20,782 bases of DNA from a virus. Of the stretch, positions 12,503-18,555 are shown in pieces (the stretch's first letter is position 1; each line of letters starts with the position of its first letter). Below the pieces are notes generated by a model, which searched no databases, was not told the DNA's origin, and was given only the letters and a program-made list of their open reading frames with translations. The DNA lies in the UHGV virus genome UHGV-0324485; one strand, 5' to 3'. The translations under genes and the position numbers were made by a program.

Positions 12503-12690
12503 CGTTTAACAGCCTGCCGGACGGGCTGTCCTACCTTCTCAATCCGGTTGACGCCGGGTTAATTCCTTATACAGCACTGAAAGATGGCTCTGTCGATTTG
12601 TACGACATTGCTCTCTTGAATGACCATCTGGCGGTAAAAGCGGATAACCAGCGGCGCATTGAGAAATGGAGAGAGGATAATGAACGCTGA
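12050..12690 (+). CDS. Predicted frameshifted chaperone fusion (G-T-like): chaperone residues 1-135 plus a ~78-aa -1-frame extension
   Basis: Extension translates without stops (FAYTPYQHDTEPATGLTFNSLPDGLSYLLNPVDAGLIPYTALKDGSVDLYDIALLNDHLAVKADNQRRIEKWREDNER) and ends 10 nt into the tape measure gene. Confidence 0.45.
12448..12454 (+). promoter_or_regulatory. Candidate -1 programmed ribosomal frameshift site A_AAT_TTT
   Basis: Heptamer fits X_XXY_YYZ in the chaperone frame (codons GGA AAT TTT). The -1 frame is open from here to TGA at 12688-12690. Confidence 0.5.
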
Positions 12691-14686
12691 AACTATTAAA
12701 GATTTCCTCGTCTCGCTTGGCTTCAGTGTGGATGATGCAGGAGCGAAAAAGTTCGGTTCTGTCCTCGCCGGTACAACTGCAAATGTCATCAAAATGGGGC
12801 TGGCCGTTGAAGGAGCCGCGCTGTCCGTGGTGGCCTTCACGGCTAAGATCGCCTCCGGCCTGGATAATCTTTACTGGGCGTCACAGCGCACCGGCGCGAC
12901 AGTCCAGGGAATTCAGTCTATTGGCTATGCGGTTTCGCAGGTTGGCGGCAGCGTGGACGCTGCGCGATCTTCTCTGGAAAGCCTCTCCCGGTTTATTCGT
13001 AACAATCCCGGTGCAGAAGGCTTTCTGAATCGCCTGGGCGTACAGACCCGTGATGCCAGCGGTAACATGCGTGACATGGCCGCTATTTTTACGGGCGTTG
13101 GACAGAAACTCAGCAGCATGCCGTATTACCGGGCTAACCAGTATGCGCAGATGCTGGGCATTGACGAAAATACCCTGATGGCTATGCGTCGCGGAGTGGG
13201 GCAGTTCAGCGCTCAGTATTCAGAAATGGTGAAAGCGATCGGATTTAATGCCGATCAGGCTGCCTTATCGTCAAACCGGTTTATGACCTCGCTGAAATCG
13301 CTCGGTGAAATGGCCGGGATGGCGCGGGACAAAATCGGATCGAATCTTGCGGACGGACTGGCGGGGCAGATTGATAACCTGCGCAAAAAGATAATTGAAA
13401 ATTTTCCCAAAATTGAAGTCACCATCACAAAGGTCATAAAGGGGATCCTCTGGCTGGGTGAGATAGTCGGGCGGGTAGCATTTCGGATAGTCGATGGTGT
13501 CGGAGATATCATCGAGTGGTGGGGGAAACTGGATGCCGAAACGAAAACCCTGATAGAGGTTATCGGCGGTCTGGTTGTCGCCATGCGGATACTTAACTCT
13601 ACTTTCTGGATGTCACCTATAGGGCTGATTACCGGTCTGATCGTGGCTCTCGGTCTCTTGTGGGAAGACTACAAAACATGGAAAGAAGGCGGTAACAGCC
13701 TTATCGACTGGGAAAAATGGCAACCGGCAATAGATAAAGCGAAGGATGCGATCACCTGGTTCCGCGACAAATTACTCGAGCTGAAAGACAGCGTGGGGGG
13801 ATGGCAAAAATCATTGGAAATCCTCGGTACATTCATCGCGGGTGTCTGGATATCCAAGGTTCTGGGGGCTTTCGGAAAAATATCAGGTTTGCCGATCCCA
13901 CCCTGGCTTAAATTGTGGGCGCTTTACGCGGGTTATATTGTTAGTGACAGAGAAAATATTGCCGATAGCGCAAAATCTTCACTGAGGTATACGAAGCGAA
14001 TTATCGGCGACACGCTGGCTGCTATTGGTATAAAAACAGATATCGGACGCAGGGATGTCAGTGAGGTCCGTGAATGGCCTGCGTGGATGGACTGGTTGCA
14101 CGGGGGACCCGGTAAAGTTATCCGGCAGGGACAGAGTAACGGTGTAGTGCATGGCTCCAACGTCCAGCCCGACATCCCCGGCGGCGGCACTCTTGCTGAT
14201 CGTAACAATAACCCCGGGAACATTCGCCCGGTGAGCGGTAAAGGGTTCCGGTTTTTCGAATCAGCGCTTGAGGGCTGGGAGGCGATGAAAAACCAGCTCA
14301 TGCGTTACTTTACCGGGAAAACAACCGGACGGGCATTACAGACTATTCAGGATATTGTCAGTACCTGGGCCCCGGCAGGTGATAACAACGATCCGAAAAA
14401 GTATGCACAGGATGTTGCGAAATGGATGGGAGTATCACCGAATGCAATATTGAATCTTACAGATCCCCAGACTATGGGAGCATTGATGCAGTCGATGGCG
14501 CGCAAAGAAGGTTATTCAAACTGGAACAGCCCGCTGGCGTATCAGGCCGCCGCTGGCAGCCTTAACCAGCAGACTGTTATAAATGTTCATGGAGTTAACA
14601 ACCCTCAGGAGGCGGCTAATCTGATCGCTGACAAGCAGGGGGCTGTAAATGCCAGGGCGGTACAGCAATTGAAAGGACCTGCGTAA
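12680..14686 (+). CDS. Tail tape measure protein
   Basis: 668 aa with strong RBS GGAGAGAGGA before ATG 12680 (the track's 12659 start is TTG). Several hydrophobic segments mid-protein; position after the chaperone pair. Confidence 0.75.
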   Translation: MNAETIKDFLVSLGFSVDDAGAKKFGSVLAGTTANVIKMGLAVEGAALSVVAFTAKIASGLDNLYWASQRTGATVQGIQSIGYAVSQVGGSVDAARSSLESLSRFIRNNPGAEGFLNRLGVQTRDASGNMRDMAAIFTGVGQKLSSMPYYRANQYAQMLGIDENTLMAMRRGVGQFSAQYSEMVKAIGFNADQAALSSNRFMTSLKSLGEMAGMARDKIGSNLADGLAGQIDNLRKKIIENFPKIEVTITKVIKGILWLGEIVGRVAFRIVDGVGDIIEWWGKLDAETKTLIEVIGGLVVAMRILNSTFWMSPIGLITGLIVALGLLWEDYKTWKEGGNSLIDWEKWQPAIDKAKDAITWFRDKLLELKDSVGGWQKSLEILGTFIAGVWISKVLGAFGKISGLPIPPWLKLWALYAGYIVSDRENIADSAKSSLRYTKRIIGDTLAAIGIKTDIGRRDVSEVREWPAWMDWLHGGPGKVIRQGQSNGVVHGSNVQPDIPGGGTLADRNNNPGNIRPVSGKGFRFFESALEGWEAMKNQLMRYFTGKTTGRALQTIQDIVSTWAPAGDNNDPKKYAQDVAKWMGVSPNAILNLTDPQTMGALMQSMARKEGYSNWNSPLAYQAAAGSLNQQTVINVHGVNNPQEAANLIADKQGAVNARAVQQLKGPA

Positions 14687-15336
14687 TGGACTTTTTATCT
14701 GTTTTACTGCAGCAGCGAACCCGCTCAATAGGAATCATTATTCCTGATGTGGTTATTACCGAAAAGCACACTGACGCCCTGGAAATTACGGAACATCCGG
14801 TTGAACAGCCCACGAATGCTGGTGCCAGTGGTGAGGACGCTGGTTACATATCAGAACACGCATTCAGGCGCCCTTCTGAGGTTGTGATGGAAACCGGTTT
14901 TTCCGGAGGCGGATCGCTGCTTGATTTTGCCAGTAACCTGACGGCTACCAGTTTACTGGGGCTGAGCCCGAAAGAACTGTATCAGGAACTGCTTAACCTG
15001 CAGCGGAATCGTATTCCTTTCGATGTGACAACCGGCAAGCGTATTTACAACAATATGTTGATAAAAACGCTGGAGGTCACGACCGATAAGAGTAGTGAAA
15101 ATGTGCTTCTGGCGACACTTACCCTCAGGGAAGTAATTATTACCTCCACGCAGTCAGTCAGGGCAGCCCCGAAAAACAATATGACCGAGGGAGTCGGAAC
15201 GTCTGCTGTGCAGAATACAGGCACCAAAACAACGGTGCCGCCGAATAATTCCATTCTGAAATCGCTGCCACAGATGGCGCAAGAAGGTATCTCCACTGTT
15301 GATGGGTATTTGAGCAATTTATTTCTGGGAAGGTGA
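14686..15336 (+). CDS. Tail/baseplate protein, hypothetical
   Basis: 216-aa ORF with TAATG overlap with the tape measure stop. Confidence 0.4.
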   Translation: MDFLSVLLQQRTRSIGIIIPDVVITEKHTDALEITEHPVEQPTNAGASGEDAGYISEHAFRRPSEVVMETGFSGGGSLLDFASNLTATSLLGLSPKELYQELLNLQRNRIPFDVTTGKRIYNNMLIKTLEVTTDKSSENVLLATLTLREVIITSTQSVRAAPKNNMTEGVGTSAVQNTGTKTTVPPNNSILKSLPQMAQEGISTVDGYLSNLFLGR

Positions 15337-15339
15337 TTC

Positions 15340-15642
15340 ATGAAAGCCGTAGAAATCCCACTGGTTGCTGACAATCAGACTTTTGCCACCACAATTAACG
15401 GTTCGGTTTATCACCTGTCTGTCATCTGGCGAGGCGAGTACTGGGTTCTGGATCTTGCTGACAGCAATGGCTCCGCCATTATATCAGGTATACCGATGAT
15501 TACGGGGGCTGACCTGCTGGCACAGTATCGATATATGGATCTGGGTTTTTCTCTGGTGGTGCTCTGCGACGTGGCAGGGCAGGAGAATCCGACGCAATTC
15601 GATCTTGGAACGCTCTCACACCTCTATGTTTTCACGGAGTAA
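15340..15642 (+). CDS. Tail/baseplate protein, hypothetical
   Basis: 100-aa ORF with RBS GGAAGG. Confidence 0.4.
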   Translation: MKAVEIPLVADNQTFATTINGSVYHLSVIWRGEYWVLDLADSNGSAIISGIPMITGADLLAQYRYMDLGFSLVVLCDVAGQENPTQFDLGTLSHLYVFTE

Positions 15643-15644
15643 CA

Positions 15645-16679
15645 ATGTCGAAAAACTGGATGCGTCACTTTGAATTATTGCTTGTTGATGATAAGGGCGA
15701 CGGGATAAAAATTTCTGAGCTTAAAGTCACTTTCAATATTCAGAAAATGCCTGCGACCATATTTAATGGATTCGTTGGAAATTTTAAGGTTTATAACCTG
15801 TCTCCTACCACTCAGAACCGGATTATGCAGAAGGAGTTTTCGCGTATACAGGTTATTGCCGGATACAAGGGGCAACCGGATGCAGCAGGTAATTATCCTG
15901 ATGAAAACGTTGGTATGATATTCAATGGAGATATCCGTTTTACTGTCACTGGTAAAGATAATGCCACAGACAGTTGGATCATGTTGCAGTGTATTGACAG
16001 CTGGGAAGGCCACCTGAACGCAAGTGTGAAAACCACAGTGGCAGCTGGCTGGAAGTACAGAGATCTTTTCAGTCTGGGTATGAAATCATTCGAACCATAT
16101 GGCATCGAATCCGGCGCAGTTTCTGACATGCCTGAAACGGTATTTCCCCGGGGTCGCGTTGTTTATCAAAACACATCAAGGTTGATGAATCATATCGCAG
16201 GGCAGTGTAAGGCTAACTGGTGGTATGAAAATAATCTGGTAAATATTGTTCCTGAAGATAAATATATTGGTGTTGCTACGGTGTTGAATGCTAACACCGG
16301 GCTTATCGGTATGCCACAGCAGACGATGGGAGCTGGCGTAAATGTCAGATGTCTGATTAATCCAAATATTAAGCTCGGTGGGCTTATTCGTCTGGATCAG
16401 GCATCTGTATACCGTGCCTCTTTGAGTAATGACCAGGTAGCGAAATCGCCAGCACGACTGGATGAGTCTGAAAGCGACGGTAATCTCTACGTTAACGGTC
16501 TGCCAGGCATGTCACAGCCTGCCAGCATTAATACTGACGGTGATTACATTGTGGGCAGCATTGATTATACTGGCGACACCCGAGGGCAGGCGTGGTATAT
16601 GGACCTGCTTTGCCTGGCTAAAGGTGGCAAAGAACTATTGGCAAAAGGCACTTTGGACAAAGTCGGAGATGTAGAGTGA
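15645..16679 (+). CDS. Putative baseplate hub / late-control-D-like tail protein
   Basis: 344-aa ORF with RBS GGAG, upstream of the spike gene; family assignment is weak. A sampled 60-nt stretch is about 40% GC. Confidence 0.35.
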   Translation: MSKNWMRHFELLLVDDKGDGIKISELKVTFNIQKMPATIFNGFVGNFKVYNLSPTTQNRIMQKEFSRIQVIAGYKGQPDAAGNYPDENVGMIFNGDIRFTVTGKDNATDSWIMLQCIDSWEGHLNASVKTTVAAGWKYRDLFSLGMKSFEPYGIESGAVSDMPETVFPRGRVVYQNTSRLMNHIAGQCKANWWYENNLVNIVPEDKYIGVATVLNANTGLIGMPQQTMGAGVNVRCLINPNIKLGGLIRLDQASVYRASLSNDQVAKSPARLDESESDGNLYVNGLPGMSQPASINTDGDYIVGSIDYTGDTRGQAWYMDLLCLAKGGKELLAKGTLDKVGDVE

Positions 16680-17011
16680 AAAAAGTATTTTTTTGTTTAT
16701 TCTTGGCCCTGCCGTTAACAGTTTCGGCGGCAACGCAGTGCGGACCATTCCGCTTTGATGCTGGTAATGATGGCCTCATGCACATCAATGGTCAAAAGCC
16801 AGAAACACAAAAAATGACCTTTTTGAAACAAAAAGACGATTTCGATAATGTCATGATGCAATGGATGTTACCTGATCCTAATACTGGACGTTGGTTAGGT
16901 ATGGACTACATCAAACGAAACAAAAAAGCGATCCTCAACGTTGAAGTTATCCGCAAAAATATGGACGAGCCTCGGGAGTTCTGGACGTATGATTGCCGGA
17001 AGGTGAAGTGA
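16676..17011 (+). CDS. Small secreted protein (111 aa) with cleavable signal peptide; accessory (moron) gene
   Basis: GTG start overlapping the upstream TGA (GTGA) with GGAG 7 nt upstream. N-terminus MKKVFFCLFLALPLTVSA|ATQ and two Cys in the mature part (C22, C107); AT-rich. Confidence 0.5.
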   Translation: MKKVFFCLFLALPLTVSAATQCGPFRFDAGNDGLMHINGQKPETQKMTFLKQKDDFDNVMMQWMLPDPNTGRWLGMDYIKRNKKAILNVEVIRKNMDEPREFWTYDCRKVK

Positions 17012-17085
17012 ATTACATTGGCGTCCAGCTTCTGCAGAACAGCATGGATGCACCGAAAATCATCGGTTCCTTTCCATGCAAAAAG

Positions 17086-17113
17086 ATTGTTGATTAATCA
17101 CTCGTAATTATAA
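17086..17113 (+). promoter_or_regulatory. Candidate sigma70 promoter (-35 TTGTTG/TTGATT, -10 TATAAT at 17108-17113)
   Basis: TATAAT hexamer lies about 38 nt upstream of ATG 17151, with TTG-containing -35 candidates 13-16 nt upstream of it. Spacing is not ideal. Confidence 0.35.
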
Positions 17114-17150
17114 TGTGATACTTCTACTTTCACGATAAGGAATTTGTCAC

Positions 17151-17390
17151 ATGTTCGGATTTGATAAATTAATAACTCCAAAAATCATCAACGTTCTGTA
17201 TGGCATCACAATGTTACTTCTGGTTGTTGCCGCCATTATAACGTTTGTTAATGGGAAGGCTGCTGGCGCTTTAGTGCTTTTGTTATGTGCTGTATTTTGC
17301 CGAATATTCTTTGAGTGCATCATGGTTTCATTTAAAAACAATGAGTATCTTCGCCGAATAGCTGAAGCGTTAGAAGCAAACAAGCAGTAA
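17151..17390 (+). CDS. Small membrane protein (79 aa, two predicted TM helices, C-terminal amphipathic tail); accessory (moron) gene
   Basis: RBS AAGGA about 10 nt upstream. Hydrophobic stretches ITMLLLVVAAIITFV and ALVLLLCAVFCRIFFECIMV; a sampled 60-nt stretch is about 32% GC. Confidence 0.55.
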   Translation: MFGFDKLITPKIINVLYGITMLLLVVAAIITFVNGKAAGALVLLLCAVFCRIFFECIMVSFKNNEYLRRIAEALEANKQ

Positions 17391-17408
17391 TGAAACTTCA
17401 ATAATGAA

Positions 17409-17430
17409 CCCGCCACCCGGCGGGTTTTTT
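17409..17430 (+). terminator. Rho-independent terminator (CCCGCC-ACCC-GGCGGG followed by TTTTTT)
   Basis: 6-bp GC stem, 4-nt loop and a 6-T run 19 nt after the stop of the small membrane protein gene. Confidence 0.7.
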
Positions 17431-17449
17431 ACTTTCTGGAGACATATGA

Positions 17450-18202
17450 ATGCCCGTTTCTTTAAGCGCTCAACTTGGTAGCAAAGAACAGGCCGATGTA
17501 AGACTTGCTGGCTCTGTCATGTCGGCGCTGCGTGTTTCTATGCCCGGCATCGTCCAGTCATTTGATCCGGACACGGTAACAGTGGTTGTTCAACCTGCGA
17601 TTAAAGGCTATGAGCCGGACTCAAATGGAATCAACCAGTCGACGACATTACCCCTGCTGGTGGATGTACCAGTGGTATTCCCGCGCGGCGGAGGCTGTAC
17701 GTTGACTTTTCCGGTAAAAGCCGGGGATGAGTGTCTTGTCGTTTTTGCCGATCGTTGTATTGATTTCTGGTGGCAGAGTGGCGGGATACAGGAGCCGGTC
17801 GATGACAGAATGCATGATTTATCGGATGCGTTTTGTATTGTCGGTCCCCAGTCGCAGGCGAGGAAGATTAGCGGTATTAATACCAGTGCCACACAGTTGC
17901 GTAGTGACGACGGCAGCACCTATTTTGAGCTTAATCCTGACACCAGGAAAATTAAAATTGTCGCTCCGGGTGGTCTTGATGTGGTTGCCCCTCTGGCTGA
18001 TTTTTCTGAGAAAGTAACCATTCATGGCCTGTTAACCTGGATGGGGGGCATGGTGGGGTCTGTTGTTTCTGGTGTGGCTTCAAAAATCACTGGTGCTGTT
18101 GAGTTCTTGGGGAGCGTTAAGGCTAACGGCAAGCCAATCGATGATACGCACACTCATGGCGGTGTTCAGCGCGGTGGAAGCAATACCGATGGGGTAAACT
18201 GA
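17450..18202 (+). CDS. Baseplate central spike protein (Mu gp45 / P2 gpV-like)
   Basis: 250 aa, RBS GGAGA. C-terminal HTHGG motif and Gly-rich beta-like repeats typical of gpV-family spikes. Confidence 0.6.
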   Translation: MPVSLSAQLGSKEQADVRLAGSVMSALRVSMPGIVQSFDPDTVTVVVQPAIKGYEPDSNGINQSTTLPLLVDVPVVFPRGGGCTLTFPVKAGDECLVVFADRCIDFWWQSGGIQEPVDDRMHDLSDAFCIVGPQSQARKISGINTSATQLRSDDGSTYFELNPDTRKIKIVAPGGLDVVAPLADFSEKVTIHGLLTWMGGMVGSVVSGVASKITGAVEFLGSVKANGKPIDDTHTHGGVQRGGSNTDGVN

Positions 18203-18555
18203 TGCGATACAGACGTGAAGACGCCGATGGCGATTACACCTTTGGCAGCGGTGATGACACCTGGCTGATTAACTCACCGGAGGCCGTGGCGCAGGCGGTA
18301 AAAACGCGATTCGAATTGTGGTATGGGCAATGGTTTCTCGACACCACCGAGGGGACTCCGTGGATCCAGTCCGTACTCGGTAAGCAGAAGCCGGAAACCT
18401 ACAACCTGGCGATCCGTAAGCGCATCCTCGAAACGCGGGGCGTTAAATCAATCCTCTCTTTCAATACGACGGTGGATACCACGACCCGACGTGTCATGTT
18501 TTCCGCTGAAATCGACACTCTTTATGGAATAACGACTGTTACATCGGAGGCGTAA
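18202..18555 (+). CDS. Baseplate wedge protein (gpW / gp25-like)
   Basis: 117 aa with ATGA overlap with the spike stop; size and position match P2 gpW / Mu gp46. Confidence 0.55.
   Translation: MRYRREDADGDYTFGSGDDTWLINSPEAVAQAVKTRFELWYGQWFLDTTEGTPWIQSVLGKQKPETYNLAIRKRILETRGVKSILSFNTTVDTTTRRVMFSAEIDTLYGITTVTSEA

Follow-up and report, generated by a model that had tools for sequence, protein, structure and literature searches.

A predicted periplasmic protein encoded beside the baseplate hub gene of temperate enterobacterial myoviruses, a candidate superinfection-exclusion factor

The genes for T5 Llp and for Cor, both envelope-targeted exclusion lipoproteins, adjoin the tail or receptor-binding genes to which they correspond in function. 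Llp acts against FhuA in exclusion (PMC9586334), and P22 SieA acts at DNA entry (PMC10883804). HK97 gp15 is a tail-region moron that blocks DNA entry, and morons in general are independent transcription units with a sporadic distribution (PMC3594210). T4 Spackle (Sp, gene 61.3) is a periplasmic phage protein that binds and inhibits the tail lysozyme gp5 of the incoming puncturing device (PMC7677548). Here, we describe an open reading frame (ORF) of the virus genome UHGV-0324485, a stretch of 20,782 nucleotides (nt) referred to in full as the window, which is a lambdoid temperate Escherichia coli prophage with a contractile tail. The ORF (16676-17011, including the stop codon, on the plus strand, marked + below) directly follows the baseplate hub gene and encodes a 111-residue protein of the STY1065/STY2022 family (PHROG 3443). 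Our favoured reading, a tentative one, is that this protein may act in the periplasm as a binder that stops superinfecting phages at the tail-tip or DNA-entry step.

As with T4 Spackle, the ORF protein is small, phage-encoded and, by prediction, exported to the periplasm; it has no sequence or fold homology to Spackle. Some of its relatives, and some of the proteins found in its place in other phages, are lipoproteins as are Llp and Cor. In contrast to Llp and Cor, the ORF protein itself is predicted to be soluble, and its gene is linked to the hub, plug and spike genes and not to fibre or receptor-binding genes. The ORF shares with the lambdoid morons, HK97 gp15, lambda lom and bor, an accessory, non-structural character and a place between tail genes that directly adjoin each other in the most distant relatives. 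Unlike morons, it overlaps the stop codon of the preceding gene, lacks any promoter or terminator that we could detect for it alone, and occurs in 80-88% of the lineage.

The hub gene (15645-16679, +; 344 residues) is of the E217_gp41 type, matching Pfam E217_GP41 (1.4e-7) and PHROG 196, baseplate hub (8e-80). Its TGA (16677-16679) overlaps the GTG start codon of the ORF (16676-16678) as GTGA, a 4-nt overlap of the two genes, and a Shine-Dalgarno GGAG (16665-16668, +), read from the sequence, lies 7 nt before the GTG; such a motif is present upstream of 74 of 118 distinct homologous genes. The N-terminus, MKKVFFCLFLALPLTVSA followed by ATQC across the predicted cleavage site, begins with a basic n-region and continues with a hydrophobic core of 13 residues; position -6 is a proline, and the residues at -3 and -1 are small. 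A rule-based reading divides the N-terminus into MKK, VFFCLFLALPLTV and SA before the A that begins the mature part. This n/h/c-region layout of a Sec-type signal peptide, covering residues 1-18 (16676-16729, +) with cleavage predicted between VSA and A, recurs across the 118 homologous genes though its sequence varies, and homologues have AxA-type motifs 2-3 residues ahead of the first cysteine. The ORF product is, by prediction, exported via the Sec pathway with the 18-residue signal peptide then lost. Exactly two cysteines are encoded in the mature part of 109 of 116 distinct genes, and C22 and C107 (codons 16739-16741 and 16994-16996, both +) are invariant among the 46-50 aligned sequences. 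The lipobox pattern [LVI][ASTVI][GAS]C was not found in the ORF protein, in which A-T-Q precedes Cys22, and the protein is predicted to be soluble in the periplasm; within the family, lipoboxes are confined to longer relatives. A preliminary description of this locus, made from the sequence of the window, had proposed the 111-residue ORF with its overlapping GTG and own GGAG, the Sec signal peptide, the two mature cysteines and a secreted, non-structural-looking product. All of these proposals agree with the sequence and with the layout conserved across the family; the product is predicted to be exported and does not look structural.

The mature domain, residues 19-111 (16730-17008, +), has ~93 residues and is confidently predicted to be a small up-and-down eight-stranded beta-barrel. 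The AlphaFold2 model, based on a 46-sequence alignment, has a mean predicted local distance difference test score (pLDDT) of 87.6 and a predicted template modelling score (pTM) of 0.74, with strands at residues 19-22, 25-29, 35-37, 44-49, 59-66, 73-81, 84-92 and 101-110. As C22 and C107 are located on the first and last strands, respectively, a disulfide between them probably closes the modelled barrel. Foldseek searches of PDB and BFVD returned nothing at E<=0.001. The profile search and structure prediction suggested in the preliminary description gave a full-length family assignment and a confidently modelled barrel with no specific structural relative. MliC and PliC, inhibitors of cell-wall hydrolases, likewise form small eight-stranded beta-barrels that are exported and have cysteines close to either end of the mature part; the ORF protein has no match to Pfam PF09864 and no close structural match to this group. 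A profile search of PDB yielded nanobody matches only, which were judged to be due to chance, and an avidin-like biotin binder was rejected as a candidate, the shared feature being the generic barrel fold, with no Pfam avidin match and no biotin-site residues.

The ORF protein is identical to WP_000755137.1, named "STY1065/STY2022 family phage-derived protein" in RefSeq, and residues 2-111 match positions 2-114 of the 115 in the PHROG 3443 profile (E 7.4e-48). It carries the family marks, a signal peptide, C-G-[PG]-[FY] close to the N-terminus of the mature part and a second cysteine 4-6 residues from the C-terminus, and has in common with family members its length, the CGPF and DC motifs and the place after a hub gene. 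A homology search gave 134 clusters of proteins of 100-122 residues, all from Enterobacterales, and only 58 of 1.84 billion representatives were matched in a profile search, so the family is narrow. Weak matches of the family profile to the large repetitive proteins P0165, P0172, P0175 and P0176 look spurious. In some relatives (P0126, P0137), which are lipoproteins, the barrel is at the C-terminus, fused to an N-terminal domain. No match to the ORF protein was found in Pfam, NCBIfam r20 or PADLOC (no PADLOC family at E<=1), and no paper was found on the STY1065/STY2022 name or on the gene, with SEN34/Brunovirus, exclusion, periplasmic and baseplate topics included in the literature search. 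The family, which the preliminary description did not recognise, is therefore already catalogued, in PHROG and RefSeq, without a described function or structure; that it belongs to no family of known function still stands.

At least 1000 contigs from E. coli and its relatives encode the exact ORF protein. Relative to a Salmonella copy, the mature part has 0.004 nonsynonymous substitutions per nonsynonymous site (dN) and 0.249 synonymous substitutions per synonymous site (dS), a dN/dS of 0.016, and the median over more distant pairs is ~0.12. For a copy that follows a hub gene encoding a 79%-identical hub, dN in the mature part is 0 and dS is 0.17. The signal peptide, with dN/dS of ~0.4-0.7, evolves near neutrality, and the combination of a freely evolving signal region with a constrained mature part is the pattern expected where a signal peptide is cleaved from a domain under constraint. 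These substitution patterns indicate that the ORF is a real gene, with its mature part under strong purifying selection.

The position next to the hub gene is also conserved. Hub loci were counted with one genome per species (74 loci) and on IMG/VR contigs (78 loci), and a family member starts at an offset of -8 to +27 nt relative to the hub stop in 59 and 69 of these, respectively, 128 of 152 in total. In 87 of 117 loci the start overlaps the hub stop. The genera with a family member after the hub gene are Escherichia, Salmonella, Klebsiella, Pantoea, Erwinia, Serratia, Yersinia and Photorhabdus. Among syntenic prophages of E. coli, the hub gene is followed by a gene for a family member of 111-115 residues, and the same order is present in Pantoea, in Erwinia, on a JGI metagenome contig, in induced coliphages, in Salmonella phage SEN34 and in Klebsiella phage Mulock, which is considered temperate because it has an integrase and CI/CII-type genes. 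In this lineage of lambdoid myoviruses, temperate phages of Enterobacterales, the slot is usually occupied by the family, whose gene is coupled to the hub gene in translation. Syntenic prophages without the gene, a possibility raised in the preliminary description, do exist, at ~15% of related loci, but the variation consists mainly of other alleles and other exported proteins.

At most loci without a family member, a different exported protein or lipoprotein fills the slot. The replacements include an 80-residue cysteine-rich secreted protein with CT(T/S)xxTGTTYC repeats, modular lipoproteins of 233-379 residues, and secreted proteins of 154 and 182 residues, with lipoboxes seen among the lipoproteins. 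They are encoded at L024 (4545-4787), L116, L117, L122, L125, L143 and L164; at L006 (3514-4239), L036, L037, L057, L161 and L175; and at L039 and L077. None of them matches Pfam or PADLOC. Domains are shuffled among the replacements and with the STY1065-type barrel. One 241-residue slot lipoprotein is designated 'HMG-box domain-containing' in a RefSeq record, a name that is probably misleading. In five loci with the most divergent hubs (L092, L094, L095, L097 and L102) the hub gene abuts the spike gene, with a gap of -11 to +48 nt. In distant members, of which one comes from a marine metagenome, the gene is instead located between the plug and hub genes (L186, 5001-5330; L187, 371-709; L188, 367-705). 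There is also an orphan family member of 112 residues, P0150 (L184, 5001-5339), in a chromosomal setting with tsx, yoaK, a LysR regulator and ubiD and with no phage genes within 5 kb, and the protein can thus be retained without a tail module. In E. coli FDAARGOS_943 (L021, 5088-6795), two copies of the insertion sequence IS1 directly follow the hub gene, and a 113-residue hypothetical gene then precedes the spike gene.

The ORF is also polymorphic. Three discrete alleles, allele 1 in strains E9 and LWY24 and alleles 2 and 3 in EC02 and EC2001, are present on hub backgrounds that are at least 94% identical, with mature proteins that are either 98-100% or 73-76% identical, and the identical ORF protein is also encoded beside the 79%-identical hub. 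Compared with the E. coli EC02 prophage, an allele-specific cassette (16600-16943, +) has 43-73% identity, in 60-nt intervals, between flanks of 95-100% identity. The cassette takes in ~60 nt at the 3' end of the hub gene and ~270 nt at the 5' end of the ORF, so that the final ~12 hub codons are part of the allele-specific block and the C-terminal tail of the hub changes with each ORF allele. Immediately downstream, the frame from 17011 reads NYIGVQLLQNSMDAPKIIGSFPCKKIVD up to a stop codon, and the 75 nt at 17023-17097 (+) are a 25-codon relic, ending VQLLQNSMDAPKIIGSFPCKKIVD, of the 3' end of a second family gene, of subfamily B. The relic is near-identical to the end of the intact gene in the E. 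coli Rb-50 prophage (L023), and its presence after the ORF stop indicates that the present allele came by replacement, leaving a cassette footprint. Such allelic behaviour is typical of specificity or exclusion genes.

The proposal that the protein serves in exclusion is one that we infer from its anatomy and gene context only. A functional tie to the centre of the tail is suggested by where the gene lies: behind the hub gene or, in distant members, between plug and hub, and in a slot otherwise taken by exported proteins. That the protein is matched, in the periplasm, to the penetration machinery is suggested by its predicted location, its binder-type fold, the linkage to plug, hub and spike genes in two gene orders, the replacement by other envelope proteins and the old, cassette-exchanged alleles. 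The protein would act in the periplasm as a binding or blocking factor, and its target would be the membrane-penetration step carried out by products of neighbouring genes, the plug, hub, spike and ejected tape measure. As a result, superinfecting phages with the same tail type would be excluded, or progeny would be spared wasted ejections on infected cells or debris, and the discrete alleles would constitute specificity types. Exclusion at DNA entry would be the most economical mechanism, on the model of Spackle against gp5, of Llp and Cor, and of SieA and HK97 gp15.

Several observations weigh against this proposal. The ORF protein matches no known exclusion protein, PADLOC gave no match, and the literature search returned no description of the family. 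Both the disulfide and the cleavage of the signal peptide are predictions. Different alleles accompany one and the same spike, plug and hub body, and if one of these is the target, the diversity of alleles is not explained by the carrier's own tail. Pfam SLT matches an Erwinia homologue of the tape measure, and RefSeq names related E. coli prophage homologues lytic transglycosylases, but the tape measure of the window falls below the Pfam SLT model, and a variant of the proposal in which the protein inhibits a tail lysin is thus without a verified target here. Transcription also has to be considered. A scan of 15300-18300 detected 5 sigma-70-like sites against 5.2 expected by chance; the nearest promoter-like site (16543-16571, 9/12) is inside conserved hub coding sequence, a by-eye search of 16600-16676 found no promoter with workable spacing, and because the ORF start overlaps the hub stop there is no intergenic room for one. 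No terminator was detected by the scan between 17011 and 17150, the first one, at 17406-17427, being located only after the DUF4282 gene downstream, and Rfam has no match in 16300-17600. The ORF is apparently read with the late tail operon, although a promoter may be buried in hub coding sequence. Classical prophage exclusion depends on expression in the lysogen, and with this late coupling and no evident promoter such expression is unsupported. For the same reason, the classification as a moron in the preliminary description stands in part. The ORF does lie between genes that adjoin in the most distant relatives, but it is not a sporadic add-on and has no terminator of its own, and the defining feature of a moron, independent transcription, is unsupported.

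Base composition had been part of the case for a moron. The guanine plus cytosine (GC) content of the ORF is 42.6% and one 300-nt segment of the tape measure gene reaches 58.7%, in agreement with the ~43% and ~58% first given; the tape measure gene as a whole, however, has 52.0% and the hub gene 44.9%, close to the ORF. The mean of the window is 50.7%, and only 3.4% of 336-nt segments are as AT-rich as the ORF. At third codon positions the GC content (GC3) of the ORF is 48%, inside the 44-63% range of the other genes of the window. Since the hub gene is also AT-rich and the GC3 of the ORF is ordinary, there is no step in composition at the hub/ORF boundary. Of the coding stretches sampled, the first 150 nt of the hub gene (15645-15794) are the richest in AT, with 34.7% GC, which places the beginning of the low GC region well upstream of the ORF. 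The minimum for a gene is in the DUF4282 gene, with 37.5% GC and a GC3 of 39%.

Coupling to the late operon would also suit a late lytic-cycle accessory that acts on the producer's own envelope, in lysis, in peptidoglycan or outer-membrane breakdown or in release, and not on other phages. At most loci the start codon either overlaps the hub stop or lies directly next to it, no promoter rises above chance, all carriers are lambdoid temperate phages, whose late transcripts read through terminators, and the filling of the slot by unrelated exported proteins suggests that the conserved trait is something in the envelope that is made late. We nevertheless regard this explanation as rather doubtful. 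A complete lysis cassette, with holin, GH24 endolysin, Rz-like and Rz1-like genes, is already present elsewhere in the prophage, the modelled fold is a binder-type barrel and neither a hydrolase nor a spanin, and discrete old alleles and an orphan chromosomal copy are hard to fit with a housekeeping lysis factor. A further view is that the hub gene has an obligatory exported-partner slot, filled by polymorphic and partly non-homologous periplasmic proteins or lipoproteins that are matched to the penetration machinery of the tail. We consider this unlikely; if it holds, the alleles may define 'injection-exclusion groups' among otherwise near-identical prophages; in a more radical version, the protein would undergo oxidative folding in the periplasm and would bind or act on the phage's own tail tip only after lysis.

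Quite improbable, in our estimate, is a classical lysogenic-conversion moron that is expressed from the prophage and directed at the host or its environment, as for Bor and Lom, in serum resistance, adhesion or stress tolerance, with no link to the tail. Such a role would be consistent with an exported, non-structural protein, with the low GC content relative to the window mean, with the closed junction in the most distant relatives, with neighbours that are typical cargo, toxin-antitoxin systems and immI-like genes, and with the wide occurrence of the exact protein in E. coli and its relatives. The place beside the hub gene is, however, fixed in 80-88% of loci across genera, with plug and hub neighbours in distant members, whereas the cargo a few hundred bases further on varies; neither a promoter nor a terminator of its own was found for the ORF; and the niches of the carriers, plant-associated Pantoea and Erwinia, insect-pathogenic Photorhabdus and gut E. 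coli, are too diverse to favour a host-niche factor. A barrel of the avidin or lipocalin type that binds a small ligand, and so sequesters a periplasmic metabolite or lipid, is very unlikely. The chance that the protein is a component of the virion or of baseplate assembly, either with its hydrophobic N-terminus as an anchor or artefact or as a periplasm-folded protein that joins the tail tip after lysis, appears slimmer still. Conserved synteny and translational coupling with the hub, plug and spike genes, and the hub tail that changes with the allele, could be cited in favour, but the latter follows trivially from the fact that the two genes physically overlap. Whereas tails are assembled in the cytoplasm, the protein has an invariant pair of cysteines and what reads as a canonical signal peptide of the cleavable type, lipoprotein versions exist, ~15% of related tail modules have no family member, and five have nothing at all between hub and spike.

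The gene order of the prophage is based on the RefSeq annotation of E. coli E9 and on Pfam and PHROG scans, and the region tested is 100% identical to the chromosomes of strains E9 and LWY24. Upstream of the hub gene are, in order, the genes for the tape measure (12659-14686; RefSeq annotation of E9, Pfam and PHROG), a Dit-like baseplate protein (14686-15336) and a Pam3_gp18-type plug (15340-15642). The central spike gene (17450-18202, +; 250 residues), recognised by Pfam PF18352 (1.3e-44) and an Apex motif, is the downstream border of the variable junction, and beyond it are the sheath initiator, baseplate J and wedge genes. The 117-residue sheath initiator (18202-18555) is variously named 'thioredoxin domain-containing protein', 'hypothetical protein' and 'contractile injection system sheath initiator' in RefSeq, and such names are probably misleading.

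Between the relic and the spike gene is a gene for a 79-residue small membrane protein (17151-17390, +) with two predicted membrane helices, which matches Pfam DUF4282 (1.2e-10) and PHROG 12129 (8e-48). A promoter-like site for this gene was noted by eye at 17087-17114 (+), with TTGTTG and TATAAT separated by 16 nt; its -35 hexamer matches at only 3/6 positions and the site was not flagged by the scan because at least 4/6 were required per hexamer. The gene is followed, before the spike gene, by an intrinsic terminator (17406-17437, +), GAACCCGCC-ACCC-GGCGGGTTT and then a T run. An equivalent terminator hairpin is present after the DUF4282 gene of Erwinia, and gene and terminator recur in Erwinia rhapontici (L010, 6399-6680). 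Among relatives, the DUF4282 gene is present or absent independently of the ORF. This unit, a gene that has a promoter-like site with a weak -35 hexamer and a strong terminator amid the baseplate operon, looks like the textbook moron of the window.

More generally, the content between the slot gene and the spike gene varies by prophage. It includes DUF4282, two hypothetical genes of which one is HEPN-like, an Arc/Arc/P22-antirepressor set, a YafO toxin pair, Phd/Fic, and IS1 or IS2, with immI-like genes and toxin-antitoxin systems among the cargo neighbours. A recurrent pair in this junction joins a protein of 257-273 residues with a HEPN-like protein of 126-140 residues (PADLOC HEPN_IX, 2e-6). 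Loci with such cargo are L002, L003, L005, L012, L013, L028, L036, L077, L161 and L175, and the gene pairs of this hotspot are possible uncharacterised defence systems.

The ORF family is common and occurs in many genera of Enterobacterales. If the exclusion reading is true, it would be a new family of soluble periplasmic superinfection-exclusion proteins, and its alleles could explain which prophages shield E. coli, Salmonella and Klebsiella from which temperate myoviruses, with a bearing on phage therapy and on competition between prophages. Whatever the function of the protein, the hub-spike junction is a two-part locus, with a fixed slot for an exported protein followed by a hotspot for toxin-antitoxin, HEPN-like and immI-like cargo, and is a useful place to mine for new defence genes.

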